Shown: one piece after another, positions 6,546 through 50,126 of the stretch
How positions within the stretch are numbered: position 1 is the first letter of the stretch
Layout: every line of letters starts with the position of its first letter
IMG/VR virus record: IMGVR_UViG_3300028534_000016
Span: 28,152-92,151 of that record
Reading direction: 5' to 3' (one strand)
Source: a virus
Length of the DNA stretch: 64,000 nt
Notes under the pieces: generated by a model
Told to the model about the DNA's origin: nothing
Database searches by the model: none
Seen by the model: only the letters and a program-made list of their open reading frames with translations
Position numbers and translations under genes: made by a program

Positions 6546-7847
6546 TTAGTCTCTGTTTTCTTTTAAAATTTTAATTTGTAGTTCTGCTAAATCAACATAT
6601 TTCTTCATTACGTTAATAGCATAAACTACACGTTTAATACCATATAGATCTACTAGTTTAGAATGTAGAGCGTATGAATTACGCAGACATAAAGTAACAT
6701 CTTCACGAATATCTCTATAGATTAAACCATTAATAACTCCAGCATTGTCGTCAATATTAGAATGTGTTTGGTTAAAAATCTTTTTAAGTTTACTTCCATT
6801 ATTAATGATAACATCTAAAACATCAAACATTTTTTGTTTAGAAGGATAAGCCATAAGATTCATTTGTTCTACTGCTACAGGATTAAGATATAGTGTTTTA
6901 TTAATAAACTCTCTTTTGCTTAAGCGGTCTATTACTTCTTTATCTTCTTTAAATTCAAGAACACTAAATGTAGCATTATCTAAACCAGTACTAACAAGAA
7001 TACCATATTCTAATATTTTATCTACGTCATTACTGTCTCCTAAAAATACGTTTCCTTGTAAATTAGGTTTATGTATTCTTTCTTTAGTTAACATGTCTAA
7101 AATATTCTCTGGAAATATTTGTAATCTTGTTTCTATATCATCTAATGTATCAGTAGTTTTTGCGACATATTCGATATCTTCAGTATTTTTAGCAATAGCT
7201 CCTTGTAACGGTGCAATTTGTACTGAGACTAATAAGTCTCTAATTAATTCAGGATTAATTTCTCCATTTAAATGGAACACCGTATTGATTGCCATTGTCA
7301 TGTTACTAATACTAGTGATATCTTCCTCATTTAGTTTATCAAAAGGATACGATACAAACTCTTCACCCTTTAAACTATCTTTGATAGCTTTAGCTCTTTT
7401 AACATTACTATTAAACAACATAACAAGTTTAACATAAAGTTTCTTAATAGATTTAACAATCTTCTCAATTACAGCTTTAAGTGCTTTAAAGATTTTCTCA
7501 ACATAACCTTCTACTTCTTCTTTACTAAGAACAGCATCATCTGGTAACTCGACACCAACAATGGTTAATGCTGTTTTCATTCTATCGCTATCAAGCTTAT
7601 AGAGAGCTTTTTTAACTTCTTCGTCTTCTACACTAAGTGATTCAAGATCAAGAGTTGTAGATAGCTTATTTAACGTTTTAAGACCATCTTCATAGTTTTG
7701 TAAATAAGTTTCTACAGTCTTCTCTTCTTGAGATACCTCTAAAGCGATTAATTTATATTCTGTTTCAGAAAGTAGTTCACCTTCAAATGTTTCTTCTTGA
7801 GATACTTCAGGTTCTACCATATCAAATATTTTAATTGTTTTTTCCAT
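6546..7847 (-). CDS. phiKZ internal head protein family (gp93-like paralog)
   Basis: Acidic N-terminal propeptide with S-x-E sites, followed by the basic amphipathic EGYVEKIFKALKAVIEKIVKSIKKLYVK segment typical of the family. Confidence 0.7.
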   Translation of the reverse strand: MEKTIKIFDMVEPEVSQEETFEGELLSETEYKLIALEVSQEEKTVETYLQNYEDGLKTLNKLSTTLDLESLSVEDEEVKKALYKLDSDRMKTALTIVGVELPDDAVLSKEEVEGYVEKIFKALKAVIEKIVKSIKKLYVKLVMLFNSNVKRAKAIKDSLKGEEFVSYPFDKLNEEDITSISNMTMAINTVFHLNGEINPELIRDLLVSVQIAPLQGAIAKNTEDIEYVAKTTDTLDDIETRLQIFPENILDMLTKERIHKPNLQGNVFLGDSNDVDKILEYGILVSTGLDNATFSVLEFKEDKEVIDRLSKREFINKTLYLNPVAVEQMNLMAYPSKQKMFDVLDVIINNGSKLKKIFNQTHSNIDDNAGVINGLIYRDIREDVTLCLRNSYALHSKLVDLYGIKRVVYAINVMKKYVDLAELQIKILKENRD

Positions 7848-22193: not shown

Positions 22194-23246
22194 CTATTTT
22201 CCTTTTATAAATTGTTCAGGTTTAACACCTAGTTCAATGCTTGACTTAATTTCATCATGTTTTTTATTCTTTTCTAAAACACCTACTAGTTCAGTGTATA
22301 CATTATTTATATTATTAGCTTTAAAATAACTAACTGATTCTTTTAGTGGGTCTCTTTCACCTGTAAAGATTTTACTTACAAGTTTATATACATAAAGAAA
22401 AATATTATATACTAATAAAGCTACTAATGCTATTCCTAAATAACTTATACTAAAAGCAGCATATAGTGTCATAAGTACTACTACTAATATAATTAAATAA
22501 TTTATTCTAACTAGGATATGTAACTTCTCTTTTTCTTTATCTTCATCATTGTCAGTAGCTTTATCTATGATTAAGTTACTTATTTTTTGTAGTTTGCTAA
22601 TATCACTTGTATTTTCAATATCAGTAGCTGAACCACCCAATATATTTGTGTAAACATATGTTAAATCTTTTCCTTCTTTACTAGCAGAATATATCTTGTT
22701 AGCAACATCTAGAAGTTCTTTACTATCATTTACATTTTTATAAAGTCCCTCTATTGTGTTTAAGATAATGTCTGTAATCTCTTCATCAGTTTTATTTTCT
22801 TCAAAAAGTAACTTATTAAAGTTAAGTCCTACATAGACTACACCTTTACCACTAAACTTTTTTCCGTGTAATTTAATACTGTTATCTTTTACTTTCTCTA
22901 AAGTAGTCTTAATATCTACTTTCTTTCCAGTAATAAATTTATTAATTTCTTTTAAGACGGTGTCACTATTGTTATTTTCAATACTAACCACAATATCTTC
23001 GGCAGGTATAAGTTTAAAATTTAATTTAAATTGTTTCTTAATACCTTTTTCGATAACATCGATATGTTGTTTATATCTGTCTAGCGTAAAATAGACTTGG
23101 TTATCAATATTTAATTTTTTGTCTTTACGTATAACCTCTGTAAGTTGAGCTACTTGTTTTAATAAAACACTTCTATAAAATTCAGTATATTCCTCATTAC
23201 TTAAAGAGATTACTGTATCGTCAATGTCCATGAAGTCATAAAGCAT
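22194..23246 (-). CDS. diverged paralog of the adjacent HExxH protein
   Basis: Similar order of segments (DEEITDIILNTIE aligns to AREITALLLHEVG) and a TM-like stretch, but no HExxH. Confidence 0.5.
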   Translation of the reverse strand: MLYDFMDIDDTVISLSNEEYTEFYRSVLLKQVAQLTEVIRKDKKLNIDNQVYFTLDRYKQHIDVIEKGIKKQFKLNFKLIPAEDIVVSIENNNSDTVLKEINKFITGKKVDIKTTLEKVKDNSIKLHGKKFSGKGVVYVGLNFNKLLFEENKTDEEITDIILNTIEGLYKNVNDSKELLDVANKIYSASKEGKDLTYVYTNILGGSATDIENTSDISKLQKISNLIIDKATDNDEDKEKEKLHILVRINYLIILVVVLMTLYAAFSISYLGIALVALLVYNIFLYVYKLVSKIFTGERDPLKESVSYFKANNINNVYTELVGVLEKNKKHDEIKSSIELGVKPEQFIKGK

Positions 23247-23352
23247 GAGTAATCCTTAGTTGTATATAATCAATTAATATGGTTGTTACTATTCTCTACT
23301 GTTTAAAAATCATAAATACGTTTCATCTATGAAGAAACTATAAGGAAATATT

Positions 23353-24701
23353 ATGGCAGAAATTATTGGTAAAGAGTGTAAATTTGTAGTACACTTACCT
23401 AAAATATCAGGACAACGACCTGATACTCATGTTATTAAAGAACGACTACACTATTCTGACGGAACAACAAGACCCAACTTAAAAATAATTAAAAACTTTA
23501 AACGACCATTTTGGGTAACTAAAGAACACTACAGGAAACACAAAGACAAGAAAGAAGTAGAAGAGTTAGAGAGAGTAAATGAACACTTCTCTACAGAATC
23601 TGATTTAGGAAGGAATATAGCAACTAGGTTAGGTTCTCGTTATAACGGTATTTATAAATTAAGGGATGTTATAGATTCTCCTTATATCTATGGTATTGAT
23701 ACTAAATCAGTAGCTATCATTAAGAAACTCTATATGGATAAATATCCAGATTGTATTAGTCCTTATACTGTAGCTACATTAGATATTGAAAATGATACGT
23801 TAACAAATGAAATTACTATTGTTAGTTTAGTAATGGAAGATAAGATACACACTATTTTAACACAGAAGTTTTTAGATAATAGTGATGCTAATGTAAGAGA
23901 TCCTATTAACAGGATTAAAGACCTTTACCAAAAATATATTCCTGATACCGAAATAAAGAAAAAAGCTAGTATTGAAATTGAAATAGTTAAAGACGAATAT
24001 GAACTAGTTAAGAACATATTTAAAGTAGCACATAAATGGCAACCTGACTTTGTAGCTATCTGGAATATCGATTACGATATACCTATGATGGTAGAAGTTA
24101 TTAAGAAATATGGAGGTGACCCAGCTGATATATTTTCTGACCCTAGTTTACCAAAAGAGTTAAGACACTTTGAATATAAACAAGGACAAAAGAGTAAACT
24201 AACTGAAAGTGGTAAATATACTCCTGTTAACCCAGAAGAACAATGGCATACTGTTAACACACCAGCAACCTTTTACCTTATAGATGCTATGTCTTCGCAC
24301 AGATATGTTCGTGTAGGCGGTAAGACAACTCCTGGCGGGTACAGTTTAGATAACATACTAGCACAAGAGCTAGGTGATAAATTGAAAAAACTAAAGTTCG
24401 GTGACGAGGATAAATATAAAGGTATCGAGTGGCACCAATATATGACTAAAAACATGCCTCTGGAATATGCTGTTTATAATATGTGGGACTGTATGTCAAT
24501 GATTGAGCTAGATAAGAAAACAAAAGACTTATCTACAGTATTACCAATGTTAGCAGGTTATTCACACTTTAGTATTTTTAATAGTGGCCCTAAAAAGATT
24601 GTAGACGGAATGCACTTCTACGTATTAGAACGTGGTAAAGTGTTAGGAGTAAGACCATCCAGAGTTGAAGATAATAAGATACTCGGATTGGATGATTGGA
24701 T
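23353..24701 (+). CDS. split family B DNA polymerase, exonuclease/motif-A subunit (phiKZ gp82-like), exon 1
   Basis: TLDIEND (Exo I), AIWNIDYDI (Exo II), YNMWDC (Exo III); ends GLDDW-I at the 5' splice site. Confidence 0.85.
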
Positions 24702-25143
24702 AAAAGAATCTATGATTAATAATAGATGATGTCCCTATATTAAGCAATTAATATAGAAAATAAACCTAATTGCGGGGAACCCCTAAAGCTAATAACTACC
24801 ACTTACACGTGGAAACATAGTGTAATACTAGACCCACTAATGGAAGAGTCTAGCATGGTAAAAACGTTATTAGATATATGGGTGATCGACGCAGCGAAGC
24901 ACCTTAAACAGCGAGAGCTATCCTATATGGAGCGTGTGAGTTCAACGACTATCCCTTATGGGAGTAGGGCCTAAGCAGGTGGGTGAGAATCCCTTAAATC
25001 GAAACGGTTTATTCCTATTATATTATATAACAGGAAATGATATAGTCTATTCTAACATGAAAGTGTTAGCTGATTAGTTCTACTTAACAGTAGTATAAAG
25101 CAACTAATCGTGTATGTAGTAGCGATACATACAGAATATAAAG
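24702..25143 (+). mobile_element. group I intron 1 in the DNA polymerase gene (442 nt, no ORF)
   Basis: P AATTGCGGGGAAC, Q CGACGCAGCGAAG, R GTTCAACGACTA, S ATGATATAGTC; P1 GGAT|...GTCC with G-U; P3 ATAAACC/GGTTTAT; terminal G; splicing restores WIILLPSH. Confidence 0.9.
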
Positions 25144-25246
25144 AATTTTACTTCCGTCCCATAGAATTAAAAATAATGGATTATGTCTAGTAGAAGAAGA
25201 CCCTACTTTACATATGAATACTAGGGCGTACATATACGATTCGGAT
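25144..25246 (+). CDS. DNA polymerase subunit exon 2 (103 nt)
   Basis: Encodes ILLPSHRIKNNGLCLVEEDPTLHMNTRAYIYDSD, in frame after splicing. Confidence 0.85.
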
Positions 25247-25697
25247 TTTAATAGCATTATTTCACATTTAAACTTAAAGAAAGATATATGTGCTAAGTCC
25301 TGTTACATAGTAATATGTAACTGAATTCTATCTAATTGCGGGAAACTCTCGTTATGTAACAAGTACTACTTACAGCTAGAAATAGACTGTAACATTCATA
25401 CCAGTAATGGAAGTTATGAATATAGTAAAAACCTTGTTAATAGAGACAACCGACGCAGCGAAGTACCTAACCTGTAACTACAGTATGGTATGTGTTCAAC
25501 GACTATCCCTTGGCTCGATCGTAATAAAGAGCAACAGGAGTAGGGCCTAAGCAGGTGGGTGAGAATCCCTTAAATCGAAATGGTAGACACCCTAACTATG
25601 TATATAGTGGGTGAAGATATAGTCTCGACTTCTAGTGAGAGCTAGAGAAGTTCATGAGAGAACTGCTGGGTAGTAGCGATACCTGGTGAAGATAACG
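25247..25697 (+). mobile_element. group I intron 2 in the DNA polymerase gene (451 nt, no ORF)
   Basis: P AATTGCGGGAAAC, Q CGACGCAGCGAAG, R GTTCAACGACTA, S AAGATATAGTC; P1 GGAT|...GTCC; terminal G; splicing restores motif A D|CVSSYPS. Confidence 0.9.
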
Positions 25698-25916
25698 TGT
25701 GTTTCATCATATCCTAGCGATACCATGGCTGCTAACGTTAGTAAAGACACTACGTCTAAACAACTAATAAATGTAGAAGGTATACCTAAGGATACTTTTA
25801 AGAAACAAAATATTAACCTATTCTTCGGAGAAGTTAATGCTATAGAGTATTGTAACACTATGTATAACTTTCCTGATTTAGACAAACTAAATGAAAAAAT
25901 AAAAGAGATGTTATAG
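25698..25916 (+). CDS. DNA polymerase subunit exon 3
   Basis: CVSSYPSDTMAANVSKDTT; completes PolB motif A; spliced product 556 aa. Confidence 0.85.
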   Translation, partial: CVSSYPSDTMAANVSKDTTSKQLINVEGIPKDTFKKQNINLFFGEVNAIEYCNTMYNFPDLDKLNEKIKEML

Positions 25917-25942
25917 AGTAGAACCTTAAGGTTCTACTCTAT
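25913..25942. terminator. perfect 30-bp palindrome between convergent genes
   Basis: ATAGAGTAGAACCTTAAGGTTCTACTCTAT. Confidence 0.75.
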
Positions 25943-26707
25943 GATGATTGTATCTTGTTGCGTATAAAGATACGCTGCAGCACCAGCTACCGCTAGTCCT
26001 AAGATAGTTGCACCGATTCCTACTTTGTGTTTAGCGAACTTACATTTAATTCCGCATTTATCTTCTTCTTTTGCTTCAGTCTCTTTTGTCTCGTTGTTTG
26101 TTTTGTTCTCTTTCATTGTTTCTTCCTTTTTGTTTGTTTTGTTTTCATTTTGTTTTAAATCTTCATCGATTTGATCTTTAATGTCTTTGACACGCTCTCT
26201 TGTTTTTTCCATACTTTCTTTAAGCTCATCTTTTTGTGTATTGTTTTCTTGCATCGTTTCTTCCTTTTGTTGTAGTTGTTCTTTTACTTTTTCAGGGTTC
26301 ATTTCATACCCTGCTTCTTTAATTTTTCTAGCGTATGCTACGGCCTCTTCGATTACCTCTTCTGGTAATGGAGCATATGGATGCTCTTCCCAGTATTTAA
26401 AGATAACAGTCATAGGTTCTAAGTAAGGTGTGTTAAGTACACTGTTAACCTTACGAAAGTTTTCAATGCCTCCAAAGAACTCGTTAATGAATGTATCAAA
26501 TTGTTCTTCTTTCACTAGTTTGTCTAAAATCTCTTTAGCTGCATTAGAGTTAACTAGTGCTGTTTCAGGGTCGGTATCTTCATAATGTGCTTTGTAGAAA
26601 TAGAACATTAATTTGTTATATTCCATTTCAAGGACGGTTGTGTCTTCTGTAGCAGTAATTATTTCGACTACTTCTACTTCCTCTTCTGTATTGTCGTGTA
26701 TTGCCAT
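25934..26707 (-). CDS. acidic coiled-coil protein with a C-terminal membrane anchor
   Basis: 257 aa; E/K-rich repeats (ETMQENNT, ETMKENKT); VGIGATILGLAVAGAAAYLY TM segment; GGAGG SD. Confidence 0.7.
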   Translation of the reverse strand: MAIHDNTEEEVEVVEIITATEDTTVLEMEYNKLMFYFYKAHYEDTDPETALVNSNAAKEILDKLVKEEQFDTFINEFFGGIENFRKVNSVLNTPYLEPMTVIFKYWEEHPYAPLPEEVIEEAVAYARKIKEAGYEMNPEKVKEQLQQKEETMQENNTQKDELKESMEKTRERVKDIKDQIDEDLKQNENKTNKKEETMKENKTNNETKETEAKEEDKCGIKCKFAKHKVGIGATILGLAVAGAAAYLYTQQDTIIIE

Positions 26708-39207: not shown

Positions 39208-39429
39208 TTATATAGCAATCTTAGTTAGTTGTTCATAAATAGGATCACTATCTTGGTTCTCTTCAGGTGTATCTAAGTAATTACTTAAAATACTTGTTAC
39301 TGATGAGAGTAATGACATATTACCACTTATACTAAATGGTTTGTTTATGTCAGTAATGTTAAAGTGTGGTTTAAACACTTCTAGTTTCTTCGCTAAATAA
39401 TTATCACCAATAATAGTGAAATTAAGTGC
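39208..39429 (-). CDS. non-virion RNAP beta' N-terminal subunit (phiKZ gp55-like), exon 3
   Basis: ALNFTIIGDNYLAKK follows NADFDGD after splicing; spliced product 488 aa. Confidence 0.85.
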   Translation of the reverse strand, partial: ALNFTIIGDNYLAKKLEVFKPHFNITDINKPFSISGNMSLLSSVTSILSNYLDTPEENQDSDPIYEQLTKIAI

Positions 39430-39954
39430 CAAATAGTTCACTAGGTATCGCTACTACCTAGCAGTCGGAATTGCACCGACATCTCTACCTTTCAGTAGAC
39501 GACTACAGTATCTCTGTAGAAGGGACTATTGTCCGTTCAGACTATATCTTATATGCATACGCATATCACTCCGTTTCGTCTTTAAGAGGACATACCTCAC
39601 CGCTTGGCGCTACTCTACTTTCTTTAATCTGCATAAGTAGACCATAGGGTTATTACATTACCTATGTGATTATCACATTGCTATGATGTGAGTTAGATTT
39701 CGATAGTCGTTGAACATATACCATACCGCAGATGCAGGTTAGGTACTTCGTTGCATCGATTCCCTATTGTTACATATATATGAGTTTTTACCTTGCCTAC
39801 TGAGAATATTACCTCGTAGGTATTACAGTCTGTTTCCAGCTGTAAGTGGTATCATATATCTTTAAGGGTTCCTGCTATTAGGAGCGTTAGGAGACACTCT
39901 CTATTAGATATCTATATAAACAAGACATTCATTAGATATCTAATATTTACGAAA
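39430..39954 (-). mobile_element. group I intron B in the RNAP gene (525 nt, no ORF)
   Basis: P1 GGAGAT|...GTCTCC; P AATAGCAGGAAC; Q CGATGCAACGAAG; R GTTCAACGACTA; S AAGATATAGTC; P3 GCTCC/GGAGT; terminal G. Confidence 0.9.
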
Positions 39955-40080
39955 ATCTCCATCAAAATCAGCATTCATAAATTTTGCACTGAGCAACGGA
40001 ATTTGTATAGTGTAATTTTTTACATTCTTATCAAACTTCGTTATGTGTACATAAAGGATAGAACCCTGTAGAAGGCTGGG
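39955..40080 (-). CDS. RNAP beta' subunit exon 2 (126 nt, catalytic motif)
   Basis: PSLLQGSILYVHITKFDKNVKNYTIQIPLLSAKFMNADFDGD. Confidence 0.9.
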
Positions 40081-40734
40081 CAGTTGTTAATTCACTAGCA
40101 TTGCCTTGTATACTAGTTAGGGAGAATTAACTCCCTATAACAACTAGGACTATATCATATACCTGATATCTATATTATTCTTTTAATGTTGACGATATTT
40201 CCAGATATTTATATCTGTATCGCGCACTTCTTTCAAATCTGAAATATTATAATATTTAACCAACCTATCAAATATTCTCTTTGTTTCGGTAAGTCTTATC
40301 GATTTAAATTTGTCACCAATATCATAATATACAATATTGTTTTGTCATAATTATCCTTATGTTAATAAAGATAATATAGATATACAGGCATCCATGCGCT
40401 TCCAACTAATTAAAGTCGTACTCTACTCGCTTGAAAGTCATATAGTCATACTATTATAACTCCACAAAGTTTTATATTTGTGTCACTCTTCTAACATATC
40501 ACTATGTTAACGCAGCTTTCGATAGTCTCTGAACCTTCACCATATAACATGTGCGCTTGTTACTTAGGTGCTTGGCTGCGGATTAGTCCGTATAACAGAT
40601 TTTTTACTCTTTAGATAGTTACTCTAAACCATTACACTATTTCTAATGTAACTTAGTATCTGTTACTTATAAACTTTCCCGTCAATTCACATGGTTTTTC
40701 TCATCGTACATTACTGCACGAGGGAACCCAGTTG
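40081..40734 (-). mobile_element. group I intron A in the RNAP gene (654 nt, IA2-like)
   Basis: P1 GGAAT|...GTTCC; P TGAATTGACGGGAAAG; Q AATCCGCAGCCAAG; R GTTCAGAGACTA; S ATGATATAGTCC; P3 CCATGTG/CGCATGG; splicing restores QRN|PSLLQGS. Confidence 0.92.
40183..40348 (-). pseudogene. frameshifted small ORF looped out of intron A P8
   Basis: AAGGA SD + ATG ACA AAA; removing one base gives about 54 aa (..NIVYYDIGDKFKSIRLTETKR..KYRQH); flanked by a ~22-bp inverted repeat at 40162-40183/40367-40388. Confidence 0.5.
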
Positions 40735-41853
40735 ATTCCTTTGCATAATAACAGCGATACCTTTACCAGGAGCTTCTTCTATTAGCTCATCAAGTATTTC
40801 GCTTATATCTTGATCATACATATTAACTGCTTTATACATTAAAGCTTTTGCTTTTTTATAAGTATAACCTCTTTGTTTAACTAACTTATTTAAGATATGT
40901 GGTCTAAAAGCAGTTACACCTATTGTCCAAGGAACATGTACTTCATCATAGTCACATTTACCTGGTATTGAAGTAATTACTCCTCTAAAAGTAAAGTGAC
41001 TTCTAAAACTAAATACATGCTTTCTAAAGATACCTACTTTAGTAGCTATATATGTATTGTAATAAGTTTCGTAAAGTGATGCTAATTTAGACTGCACACT
41101 ACCCATAGTGTTAGAAAGCTTTCTAGGTGTGTTAGTTGGGTTATTGGCAGCTTTTACCCACACCATAACTAAATCAATCATATCACTTACTGTTAAGTTA
41201 GTGAACTTACCTTTAGTAGTTACTTCCATAACAAAAAGTTTCTTATTAACAATCGGCATATAATTATTAAAAAGATTACCTCTATTAGTTTCGTATTCTG
41301 TTAATAGAAAATCTAATTCTTTTTCTTTATCAGTTCTACGGAACTTGGAAGTTTGTTTTAAGTAAGATAACACCTTACCTAAGTTAGCTATAAGATTAGC
41401 ATAGTTACGATCACCTATCATGTCTTTAATTTCATAAAGAAACGGAGGTATTTCTACAGGAGGATTATAGGAGGTATCAGATAACCATCTCAACCCATCT
41501 ATTTTAGAAGATATAATGTTACGTAACATAAGCCAATAGTGTGGGTTCATGAATCGCATGTTTTTATCTATAGCTTGCATCCATAATATAGGATCTAACT
41601 GTTCTAATGGATCAGTTACTTTAGTACCACAGGATAAACACTCTTTACCTAATAGATATTTTCCTTCTAATTCACCACAATCACATTTAGGGATAGTAGA
41701 TATGACATCGCTGTCATACACTGTCATAAGTGAATTGTTGATAGTATCTAAGTCATCTACACTATATGGGTCTAAATCGTTGATGATGATTTTAGAGCCA
41801 GTTGTAGTCATAAAGTAAGTGTCTAATGACTTAAACGTTTGGACTATTGCCAT
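40735..41853 (-). CDS. non-virion RNAP beta' N-terminal subunit (phiKZ gp55-like), exon 1
   Basis: Zinc ribbon CDCG..GKYLLGKECLSCGT; GIFRKHVFSFRSHFTFRGVITS; directly downstream of chimallin. Confidence 0.88.
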
Positions 41854-42485: not shown

Positions 42486-44351
42486 TTAGTATCTACCATA
42501 ACCTGCATGAGAGTATGGTGTTGTCCAAGATGGACCTTGTGCAGTCGCAGTTCTTGCGAAACCAGCAACATTGTTAACACCAGCACCAGCAAGGTAGTTA
42601 TCAAGAATGCTAAGGTTAGAAGTTTCAGCAAATGTGATTGCTGGTTCATATCTTGCATCGAGACCTGCACGCATAGCTGCGTCGATAAGTGTTTGGATAA
42701 AGAATGCAGTAAATGTAACACGAGTAGCTTTACCAGTGATACGTGCATCAGGGATAAGTTTAGAAATGATATCTACTTTTGTAATGTATGGGTCCATACC
42801 TGTTTTCTCTTTAGGAAGACCAGAAAGAGCCCATTTATTAATAAGATCTACATCAGAAGTTTGTGTTGCAATAAATGCAGCATCGATATCACGAATGTCT
42901 CTTTCACCTGTTTTGTCTGCCCATTTACCCATAGGAATAGTTACACCAGAAGATACAAAGATTTGATCTAGTGGGAAATCTTTAGGGAAGTTACCATCTG
43001 TAAGATGATGTGCAGCTTTAACGATTTGTCTAGCAGCATTTTGTTTACTTCTAGAGTTTTGTGGTTCTGCAGCGATAGAGAACATAGATGTATAATGTGT
43101 TTGCGGTCCAAATGATTCAATATCAAAAGATACTACTGGATCCAGTGAAAACATTTGTTTAATTGTAGCATATACTTCATCTCTAGTAAGGTTTTTATCT
43201 GTGAGATTAAGAATGCTACCAACACCATTTTGTGCGTTCTCAAGGTTAGTGATTAGGTTAAGAGCACCGATGTTACGTACACCTTTCTTAGAATCTGAAG
43301 GCATAAGTGCAGCAACCCACATATCATTGTTAGTCATAACTAATGAAGAGATAAGTCCAAGTAACGCATAACCAGGAGTAGTAGCGAACACTGCATCAGA
43401 ATCGATAATTACATGTGGATGTAGTCTGATTTGTTGTACTGGCGGCATACCTGGAGTTGTTGGTACATTGATTGCTGTAGGAATAGCATCGATGAAACCA
43501 GCTGACTTAGTTAAAGTGATTTTAGCATTTTGTAAGTTAAGAGATGTAACATTGTTTGTTGTGTCTACAGCTGCTAACTCAATTTGCCAATCAGCTCTAA
43601 CTGGTTTATCTACTTCATCTTTTGTTGTTTGTTTAAGAAGGTTTGACTCAATCTTAAGAAGCATGTTCGGTGACTGAGCTTTAGCAACACGAATGTTAAG
43701 GTCTTCAGCTTGTCCTTCGATAAGTGCTTTTTCACTTCTACATGCATTAAAACCAATTGAAGCGATACGAATGATCATTTGTGTATCATCATGTTGTACA
43801 TCAGGAACAACAAGACCATCTACAGAAGAGAACTTAGTTAAGTTATACTCTGCATGTAATGCTTCTCTTGCTTTATCGTGAAGTACTTCATCGATAGCGT
43901 CATCTGGAGTATAGATAAATGGTACTTGGTTAGTAGCCATAAGTTTACTATTTACTTCTGCCATAATGTCTGCAGCAGTCATTGGTTCACGTCCAGTTGA
44001 CTCTAACATAACTAGGTAGTAGTTTACAATATCATTTGCTCTTAATGAGATAACGATAGTAGAGTAAGCAAGACCTGTGATTACTTCTTTATCAAGAATG
44101 TTTACTTTTGGTCTCTCAGTTTCAGGAAGAGATTTGTATACCTCGATAAGACCATTAGCGATCTTGTTAGTATATTCAGAACCTGTATTTGCAGCCATTG
44201 TAAAGATAGGGTTTACACCGAAACCAACCATTGGTTTGTTTACTGTATTATCAGTGCTAGATTGTGATGTTGTTCTAGCATTTGCAGTTGTATCGAAATT
44301 TGGTGTAGTACCAGCCTGAGTTGTGTTTGTTGATTCGTCATGAATTGCCAT
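42486..44351 (-). CDS. chmA: chimallin, phage nuclear shell protein
   Basis: 621 aa from the ATG after AAGGAG; KPVRAD, TPGYALLGL, IGAL, DPVVSFDI, GKW...ERDIRDID and TGKATRVTF..FIQTL...AGL match my recollection of 201phi2-1 gp105; disordered N-terminus; high-expression codon bias; lies between gp53-like and gp55-like genes. Confidence 0.85.
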   Translation of the reverse strand: MAIHDESTNTTQAGTTPNFDTTANARTTSQSSTDNTVNKPMVGFGVNPIFTMAANTGSEYTNKIANGLIEVYKSLPETERPKVNILDKEVITGLAYSTIVISLRANDIVNYYLVMLESTGREPMTAADIMAEVNSKLMATNQVPFIYTPDDAIDEVLHDKAREALHAEYNLTKFSSVDGLVVPDVQHDDTQMIIRIASIGFNACRSEKALIEGQAEDLNIRVAKAQSPNMLLKIESNLLKQTTKDEVDKPVRADWQIELAAVDTTNNVTSLNLQNAKITLTKSAGFIDAIPTAINVPTTPGMPPVQQIRLHPHVIIDSDAVFATTPGYALLGLISSLVMTNNDMWVAALMPSDSKKGVRNIGALNLITNLENAQNGVGSILNLTDKNLTRDEVYATIKQMFSLDPVVSFDIESFGPQTHYTSMFSIAAEPQNSRSKQNAARQIVKAAHHLTDGNFPKDFPLDQIFVSSGVTIPMGKWADKTGERDIRDIDAAFIATQTSDVDLINKWALSGLPKEKTGMDPYITKVDIISKLIPDARITGKATRVTFTAFFIQTLIDAAMRAGLDARYEPAITFAETSNLSILDNYLAGAGVNNVAGFARTATAQGPSWTTPYSHAGYGRY

Positions 44352-44408
44352 GTGAATTCTCCTTGTGTTTTGTTTATGTATTGTCGACAACACATTGATG
44401 ACCGTGTT

Positions 44409-47999: not shown

Positions 48000-50126
48000 T
48001 CAATAACCCATTTCAGATACTAACATATCTGGTTTTCTAAAAAACCCGCAAGATTCGAGAATTAGGTACATGATATTTAAATTAGATGTAACAACTTTAT
48101 AAAAGTTAACTGCTTGATATATCTCCTCAGGTAGTTTCTTTCCGGCTACAATATTTAAAGGAACTCTAAATGAACCAATACTGTCTTTTTTATATTTGTC
48201 CATAAATGTTCTTAAGCGTTCAGCTATCTCTCTATCTTCTAGTTTATCAAGATACTCTTGTGTTGTTCTTCTAGAAGATAAAGTAGTGGGTATATTGACA
48301 ACCATATACGTAGGTTCTCCAGGGTCACCATATTTATCTTTAAATACATATTCCCATAATAAGTGATGTATATAAGGTGACTTAGTTCTATCTAACTTAT
48401 AGGCACTTTCTTCTTTTAACTTCTCTAATTTAAATATATCAGTCTTACCATTCTTAATGTCTTCTATAATCTTTCTCTCAGTATCTGCTGTTAATGTAGC
48501 CATTTTATTTAGAGAGATTTTACCACCAGAACTTAATGTAGTATGAATATAGTCAATCATACCATAAGCTATATCCCTAATCTCTTTATTAACCTTAGAA
48601 GCAATGAGGTGTACTCCTTTAAGTTCTAAATCTGGTACAGCAAATACAGAACCCTCTTGTATTCTAACATTAGCAAAGTAGTGTTTACTAACATTAGTAG
48701 ATGTAAATAAATCCCAAAAATATTCATTTTTCATTTTAATAAGGTCTCTATTTTCAGGAGGTATGTTCATGTGTGATGTAAACATTTTTAAATAATGATC
48801 AATAACTTGTGTGGTAATAGTCATAACGGCAGCACTAACTCCTACTGCTTCATCGTTAAATACTATCTTACCAAAGTACCATTCTATCCATTTATCATAA
48901 GCACCACAAGTACTATCTGTATCTGATAATACAATAGCTTCTCTAAACATATCTTTAATATGTGCTATAGTAGGAGGCATAATCTTAGTAATAAAACAAG
49001 CTCTAATAAAGTCACTATAAGCTATAAGTGTTTTAGTAACATTTCTAGCTGTACTAGCTAAAATATTGAGTGTTTCTGTACCTGCCATCTTTTTAAAATC
49101 TACATTCATACCTTTAATATCAGGAGCACAAATATGATAAACTAAGTTCATAACTCCTTCAGGTGAATTATTAATATCTCTAATATTGTCTTCACTACCA
49201 CTAGTACATCGTTTGCTAAGAGTACCTATAAATGTTCTCATCATTTCATCATTATGATCTTTAATAGCATTCATATCGTTAGTATATAATACTGCTGCTA
49301 ACTCTACTTTAGATAACTTTTTAAGATAGTCTAATATCTTACCCTCATACTTTATAGATTCCCAGTATTTCTTTGTACTTAATAATAACCGTTTATGTAC
49401 TTCTTCAGGAGTAGGTAAATGAAGATTATACTTTTTAAGTACTTTAACGAATCTATCTTTTTCGTATGTAGTAATAACAGTTGTTATATAATTAACTGTA
49501 GTTTCAAAATCTTTAAAGTGTTTATTGCTAGCTACCATTGTTTCAGTAATAGCATTACCGATACTGGTAACTGAGCGAGTCATACTAGTTAATGTATAAT
49601 GCGCACTTGCATTATAAAGTATAGTTCCTTTAGCCGCATATGCTCCAGATAATGAGTTATTAAAAATCTTTCTAGTTTTCTGTAATGTATTATAGTACAA
49701 AAACATATCTGGGTTATTTTCTTGTTTATATACAAAAGCTTTGTGTTTGTCTTCTTTACGTTTGTTAATATTATCTTGTAAGAATTCCGCGTGTAAACTT
49801 TTCTTAACAGTAGGGTGTACATATGTTGTAAATGACGGAACAATAATCTCACCAGATTCAATAGTTTCTTTTACGTAGTTACTAAGTTTATTGGTCTCTT
49901 GATACGTGTCTCCGTTATGATCTTTAGTATAATATTTTACTTCTGGATTCTTGATATCTGATTTTTTAACAGTTTGTTTTACAAGTTTAGTAGCTTCTTC
50001 AATTGATATATTATTCATTTTAGCAACATAAGCTGCTGCTTGTTTCATATAGGTAGCTACTGTATTTGTTAATAACGTATATTCATTATCATTTTTTTTA
50101 AATATCATAGGTGTTTTATTTTCCAT
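48000..50126 (-). CDS. split family B DNA polymerase, catalytic subunit (phiKZ gp50-like)
   Basis: Motif B QKTRKIFNNSLSG; motif C VLSDTDST; 708 aa. Confidence 0.85.
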   Translation of the reverse strand: MENKTPMIFKKNDNEYTLLTNTVATYMKQAAAYVAKMNNISIEEATKLVKQTVKKSDIKNPEVKYYTKDHNGDTYQETNKLSNYVKETIESGEIIVPSFTTYVHPTVKKSLHAEFLQDNINKRKEDKHKAFVYKQENNPDMFLYYNTLQKTRKIFNNSLSGAYAAKGTILYNASAHYTLTSMTRSVTSIGNAITETMVASNKHFKDFETTVNYITTVITTYEKDRFVKVLKKYNLHLPTPEEVHKRLLLSTKKYWESIKYEGKILDYLKKLSKVELAAVLYTNDMNAIKDHNDEMMRTFIGTLSKRCTSGSEDNIRDINNSPEGVMNLVYHICAPDIKGMNVDFKKMAGTETLNILASTARNVTKTLIAYSDFIRACFITKIMPPTIAHIKDMFREAIVLSDTDSTCGAYDKWIEWYFGKIVFNDEAVGVSAAVMTITTQVIDHYLKMFTSHMNIPPENRDLIKMKNEYFWDLFTSTNVSKHYFANVRIQEGSVFAVPDLELKGVHLIASKVNKEIRDIAYGMIDYIHTTLSSGGKISLNKMATLTADTERKIIEDIKNGKTDIFKLEKLKEESAYKLDRTKSPYIHHLLWEYVFKDKYGDPGEPTYMVVNIPTTLSSRRTTQEYLDKLEDREIAERLRTFMDKYKKDSIGSFRVPLNIVAGKKLPEEIYQAVNFYKVVTSNLNIMYLILESCGFFRKPDMLVSEMGY

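Follow-up and report, generated by a model that had tools for sequence, protein, structure and literature searches.

Does the open reading frame that starts at position 23353 of this viral sequence encode a truncated exonuclease of 458 aa, as reported by gene callers, or is it the first exon of a DNA polymerase gene? The stretch of DNA analysed here (the window, 64,000 nucleotides) is part of a 138-kb viral contig, which is judged 53% complete and comes from an uncultured phage. The sequence is found in epibiont and hydrothermal-vent metagenomes; a search for runs containing it gave no RNA run. The original prediction held that two sibling group I introns, at 24702-25143 and 25247-25697, interrupt a family-B polymerase gene around a 103-nt exon and that their excision restores a protein of 556 aa with motif A. 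It named intron-less homologs as the comparison to be made.

A search of the 64-kb window with Rfam models gave two matches to RF00028 (Intron_gpI), at 24718-25069 (70.1 bits, E 1e-15) and 25276-25647 (80.4 bits, E 8e-19). Each spans model positions 1-253 and exceeds the gathering score of 50 bits; no other Rfam family scored above its gathering score in the window. Both introns fit the covariance model over its full length, including the conserved catalytic core P3-P9. Intron 1 (24702-25143, plus strand, 442 nt) lies within codon I450 in phase 2, and intron 2 (25247-25697, plus strand, 451 nt) lies between codons D484 and C485 in phase 0. The open reading frames inside them measure 34-44 aa in intron 1 and 36-47 aa in intron 2, and no endonuclease is encoded. 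Exon 1 (23353-24701, plus strand, 1349 nt) comprises codons 1-449 and two nucleotides of codon I450 and covers the N-terminal and 3'-5' exonuclease domains. Exon 2 (25144-25246, plus strand, 103 nt) contributes the last base of codon 450 and codons 451-484, ending in the GAT codon of D484. Exon 3 (25698-25916, plus strand, 219 nt) supplies the stop and 72 codons, which encode the remainder of motif A (CVSSYPS) and the first portion of the palm-insertion segment. The 458-aa open reading frame is exon 1 read through into intron 1. A terminator-like hairpin of 17 pairs at 25909-25946 (plus strand), a pattern match from a consensus scan, overlaps the stop codon and is common to the convergent gene. 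Two other readings of the insertions were ruled out: an intein, since they contain stops in every frame and match an RNA model, and a single large twintron, since the 103-nt piece is coding and conserved.

Concerning the splice junctions, exon 1 ends in TGGAT at 24701 and intron 1 in AAAG at 25143, while exon 2 ends in CGGAT at 25246 and intron 2 in AACG at 25697, so that G is the last base of both introns. The guide sequences (GTCC in the DNA) were located at 24731-24734 in intron 1 by sequence, RNAfold and duplexfold, and at 25297-25300 in intron 2 by sequence and duplexfold. In both introns the GGAU exon end is predicted to pair with GUCC, with U.G at the splice site (RNAfold, duplexfold). 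According to the same programs, P1 consists of a GGAUA/UGUCC pairing with an inner hairpin in intron 1 and of a GGAUUU/AAGUCC pairing in intron 2, and both introns have a weak P10 pairing with their 3' exons. A shift of one base at either junction leaves the mRNA unchanged; the junctions of the original prediction are preferred because they alone place a U before the 5' splice site and a G at the intron end. The two predicted introns are thus borne out by full-length RF00028 matches together with the U.G and terminal-G rules, and the GGAT ends of both 5' exons and the GTCC in both guides, likewise part of the prediction, are present in the sequence.

Phage introns of subgroup IA2 have extra P7.1/P7.2 helices between the 5' strand of P7 and the 3' strand of P3. 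The general RF00028 alignment, which is not a subgroup-specific model, places an insertion of 51-73 nt between these two strands. The intron cores are 73-78% identical over about 170 nt to introns of Staphylococcus Twort-like phages. Both introns also have a hairpin with a GUAGCGA loop about 10 nt before the terminal G (25111-25133 and 25666-25686). The same loop, on differing stems, is found in both introns of the related locus L083 (5735-5760 and 6195-6215) and in L071.

The joined exons translate into 556 aa, with the predicted sequence around motif A. Residues 1-554 of the spliced product align end to end with residues 1-560 of the intron-less homolog P0002 at 76.8% identity, and exon 2 (27 of 34 residues identical) is conserved at a level equal to that of the whole protein. 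At the DNA level, the alignment with the intron-less relative L089 breaks off at 24701-24703 and picks up again precisely at 25698. Over both junctions, the codons of L089 are those of the ligated exons, except for TCA versus TCG in codon S483. The two intron-less homologs therefore agree with the restored sequence, and colinearity of protein and DNA upholds the predicted 556-aa PolB product with motif A. The G that distinguishes TCG in codon S483 (25241-25243) from the TCA of L089 is one of the four bases pairing with the guide of intron 2 and could reflect exon co-conversion or an adaptation to the intron.

Exon 1 has a weak match to PF03104 and a strong match to phrog_3011 'DNA polymerase'. 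No meaningful Pfam match was obtained for exons 2 and 3 alone, and a profile of nine intron-less homologs retrieved no chain at E <= 0.001 from the PDB sequence set. With tblastn, 290 phiKZ-like jumbo phages were matched. The spliced product aligns to PhiKZ gp82 (blastp E 1e-99, 31% identity), with D484 opposite D562 and exon 3 along the gp82 C-terminus. In PhiKZ, the split family-B polymerase is a 1:1 complex of gp82 (DNAP-N) and gp50 (DNAP-C), in which D562 is the catalytic aspartate of motif A and the exchange D562A abolishes polymerase activity, as reported in a 2026 preprint (PMC13648687). By homology, the gene at 23353-25916 is DNAP-N, the N-terminal subunit of a chimallivirus split family-B polymerase. 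Intron 2, judged by the alignment to D562, directly follows the codon of the catalytic aspartate D484. The DNAP-C gene (48000-50126, minus strand, 708 aa) is present in the same window and encodes the rest of the palm, the fingers and the thumb (PF20286 with E 5e-177, PF00136, phrog_2927), as is a chimallin homolog (42486-44393, minus strand; PF25677, 46 bits). Due to the gp82 homology and the presence of these two genes, the phage is, by its gene content, of the nucleus-forming jumbo type. A hint of a Campylobacterota host comes from one DNAP-N homolog (P0083), whose 215-kb contig belongs to an NCBI assembly with the label Campylobacter coli.

Insertions in this part of the gene recur in related viruses. 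When the spliced protein was searched with tblastn against 80 related viral contigs, the match was split within the last 125 codons in 19 of them and stops there in three more, which amounts to 19-22 contigs with insertions. By junction reading, the insertions fall within a stretch of 40 codons at four distinct sites, and in 15 scanned loci RF00028 introns above the gathering score lie in the same stretch. Site 1, within codon I450 directly after TGGAT, is occupied in the window and in nine loci; site 2a, after D482, in L030, L040, L050, L055, L056 and L060; site 2, after D484, in the window, L036 and L083; and site 3, within Y489, in L012 and L040. L036 and L083 have the same layout as the window, with introns at sites 1 and 2 around the same 103-nt exon, and in L012 twin introns surround an internal exon of 115 nt. 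L040 contains an apparent micro-exon of 19 nt (LDVSAS and the first base of the motif-A Tyr codon, within L040:7035-7100), flanked by two intron cores at 6729-7034 and 7084-7352. Guides and exon ends covary in the relatives, GUUCAG with CUGGAU and GUCUGC with GCAGAU in L036 and GCCC with GGGU in L012, which supports the splice sites independently. At sites 1 and 2a, long introns of relatives encode HNH_3/NUMOD (I-HmuI-like) endonucleases.

The description of the two introns as siblings stood in part. They belong to one family, are 63-66% identical over the core and share an identical block of 44 nt (24961-25004 and 25537-25580). However, intron 2 is nearer to two other introns of the genome than to intron 1: it is 80-82% identical to a third intron (G000:C1:110901-111277), which also contains the 44-nt block, and 75% identical to a fourth (C1:26945-27275). 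The third intron (minus strand, locus L002, 85 bits) is the closest relative of intron 2 and is flanked by two fragments of the RNA polymerase beta subunit (phrog_2986, phrog_3148). Just upstream of it is a homing-endonuclease-like open reading frame of 269 aa (L002:1862-2668; phrog_559, E 4e-51), so that the intron family of this genome is not wholly endonuclease-free. The fourth intron (plus strand, locus L001) reaches 89 bits, the highest score of the genome, and lies about 0.9 kb before the start of the window. Within the window, a 380-aa open reading frame (in 39208-41853, minus strand) begins with a zinc finger typical of the RNA polymerase beta' subunit and stops at QRN. It is followed on the same strand by two RF00028 matches below the threshold, one of 35.5 bits at 40503-40691 and one of 29.5 bits at 39520-39928, and two introns probably interrupt a further gene in this region.

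In a maximum-likelihood tree of 24 introns, relatedness is not predicted by insertion site; introns rather group by genome. The two introns of L083 pair with support 100/100, and those of L036 group together with L075 (96/91). One lineage per site was rejected by the AU test, both for a clade of site 1 introns (p 1e-36) and for a clade of site 2 introns (p 2e-6); the site groups were taken from coordinates, but a FastTree tree had been seen before testing. Neither a clade of the window's two introns (p 0.23) nor a clade of the genome's four strong introns (p 0.32) was rejected. Such a pattern is compatible with intragenomic spread as well as with gene conversion among adjacent introns.

We regard it as highly probable that, as a whole, the locus is a two-intron DNAP-N gene, whose ORF-less group I introns are removed by sequential splicing to give a 556-aa partner of DNAP-C. 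The identity of the introns, their junctions, the colinearity with intron-less homologs and the recurrence in relatives are direct observations of this study; the self-splicing itself, its order and the assembly with DNAP-C we infer. The pre-mRNA of DNAP-N would carry two introns of a phage IA-like type, each folding into its own ribozyme, with the GGAU of the 5' exon paired to the GUCC guide. Free guanosine would then cut, and the exons would be joined. Sequential splicing would produce a protein that comprises the N-terminal domain, the exonuclease and, with motif A, the beginning of the palm, and that would assemble with the DNAP-C encoded 22 kb away. In this reading the introns are remnants of mobile elements. 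The motif-A region is a recurrent target in related phages, where longer intron versions carry the I-HmuI-like HNH homing endonucleases.

That the introns have decayed and are no longer spliced, leaving a 458-aa truncated exonuclease as the product and a dead polymerase gene, is very unlikely. Gene callers do predict exactly this protein (P0001), but exons 2 and 3 are undamaged, continue the frame once the introns are excised and are conserved like exon 1. The catalytic aspartate is encoded in exon 2, both intron cores match the model over its full length, and the gene of the partner subunit is intact. Hardly any credence is left for an assembly artefact, in which repeated intron cores would have led the assembler to stitch unrelated pieces together. 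The cores are indeed repeats, Logan contigs from the probable source sample are interrupted within them, and their depth exceeds that of the exons by a factor of 5-14; yet separate contigs covering 23000-24887, 25113-25391 and 25565-26300 span the junctions with 0 differences each, and the same two-intron layout is present in L036 and L083 from other samples. Junctions covered without differences, with breaks in high-depth cores, argue for a repeated intron family and not for a mis-join. In contigs of vent and epibiont metagenomes, the summed depth over the cores (24887-24997 and 25331-25663) is 5-14 times that of the flanking exons, so that related introns are abundant in these communities. 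No near-identical intron-less joint, neither 24701/25144 nor 25246/25698, was found among the DNA contigs of four metagenome runs; the joints found there are other copies of the intron family.

If the two-intron reading of DNAP-N is accepted, the splicing pathway could still vary. The original prediction had considered cross-pairing conceivable, and the exon end/guide duplexes of all four combinations have predicted energies of -3.5 to -4.2 kcal/mol, with cross pairing equal to cognate pairing (duplexfold). A precondition for skipping of exon 2 is therefore present, and on these modelled energies exon skipping is possible. According to the computed products, unspliced RNA, or RNA from which intron 2 alone is removed, encodes 458 aa without motif A; removal of intron 1 alone gives 509 aa; and skipping of exon 2 gives 472 aa with a frameshifted tail, again without motif A. 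Motif A is restored only by the double splice. The predicted frameshift upon skipping and the exonuclease-only product of unspliced RNA thus hold. Exon skipping was seen in Twort orf142, as summarised in PMC11878797 after Landthaler and Shub 1999, and is the dominant form in SIOphi (PMC11878797). One may accordingly ask whether exon 1 is sometimes joined to exon 3, or splicing left incomplete, to yield an exonuclease protein of 458-472 aa with a regulatory or proofreading role. The GGAU ends of both 5' exons, the GUCC in both guides, the equal duplex energies and the frame shift to 472 aa after loss of the 103-nt exon speak for it. On the other hand, a frameshifted tail is not a designed product, an N-terminal subunit alone is not known to be stable, and the arrangement is not kept for skipping, since the exon between twin introns measures 103, 115 or 19 nt and the guides of L036 differ between the sites. 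We consider this use of alternative splicing unlikely. A broader proposal is that the ORF-less introns spread in the genome without an endonuclease, by reverse splicing at (G)GAU transcript sites matching the GUCC guide, and that regulated exon skipping yields an exonuclease-only form. Twin introns as closest relatives in one gene, and introns that do not track sites, would follow from spread by reverse splicing, and regulated skipping would be possible with close, guide-compatible introns in a phage proposed to separate transcription from translation. This combination appears rather doubtful to us.

With the two-intron reading, an essential polymerase subunit is reported by gene callers as a 458-aa 'exonuclease'. 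Among the matches listed in a database search, 46 of 119 homologs measure 421-504 aa, and the same mis-annotation is therefore probably common in related jumbo phages. The N subunit of the chimallivirus polymerase joins the list of intron-invaded phage genes, and 40 codons around its catalytic aspartate form a dense hot spot with four insertion points. In the literature searched, there was no mention of introns in a chimallivirus DNAP-N gene. The phenomenon is of a kind already known; what is added here is the four-site hot spot at motif A and the grouping of introns by genome.

That phage polymerase genes contain group I introns is established, including cases of several introns in one gene, of small internal exons and of exon skipping (PMC11878797). 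In SPO1, Bastille and other Bastillevirinae, and the Twortvirinae phage K, group I introns occupy conserved catalytic positions of an essential replication gene, as they do here, and some of these polymerase genes contain two or three introns, which are separated by small exons (PMC11878797). There the host gene encodes a family-A polymerase, whereas here it encodes the N subunit of a split family-B polymerase and both introns lack an endonuclease ORF. Twort and SIOphi likewise have several related introns in one gene, short internal exons and 5' exon ends usable by either ribozyme; for these phages PMC11878797 describes skipping as demonstrated by RNA analysis, whereas here it is a possibility suggested by predicted pairing.

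Among chimalliviruses, a group I intron in an RNA polymerase gene has been studied in detail (PMC11620839, PMC12908238). In PhiPA3 gp210, as in our locus, a group I intron is inserted at a conserved aspartate codon of an essential polymerase gene in a nucleus-forming jumbo phage (PMC11620839). The gp210 intron, in a virion RNA polymerase gene, encodes an HNH homing endonuclease acting in phage competition, whereas the introns of the window encode none. PhiKZ gp82/gp50 have the same domain content and split point, with about 75 residues of the N subunit following the motif-A aspartate (PMC13648687), but gp82 is uninterrupted and 638 aa long with a 'little finger' insertion, compared to 556 aa and two introns in the gene here. 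The Jug jumbo phages of the gut offer a further parallel, since many group I introns, many of them validated by metatranscriptome junction reads, fragment their terL, nrdD and DNA polymerase genes (PMC12880540). They belong to another lineage and another habitat, and their introns average about 206 nt as compared to the 442 and 451 nt found here.
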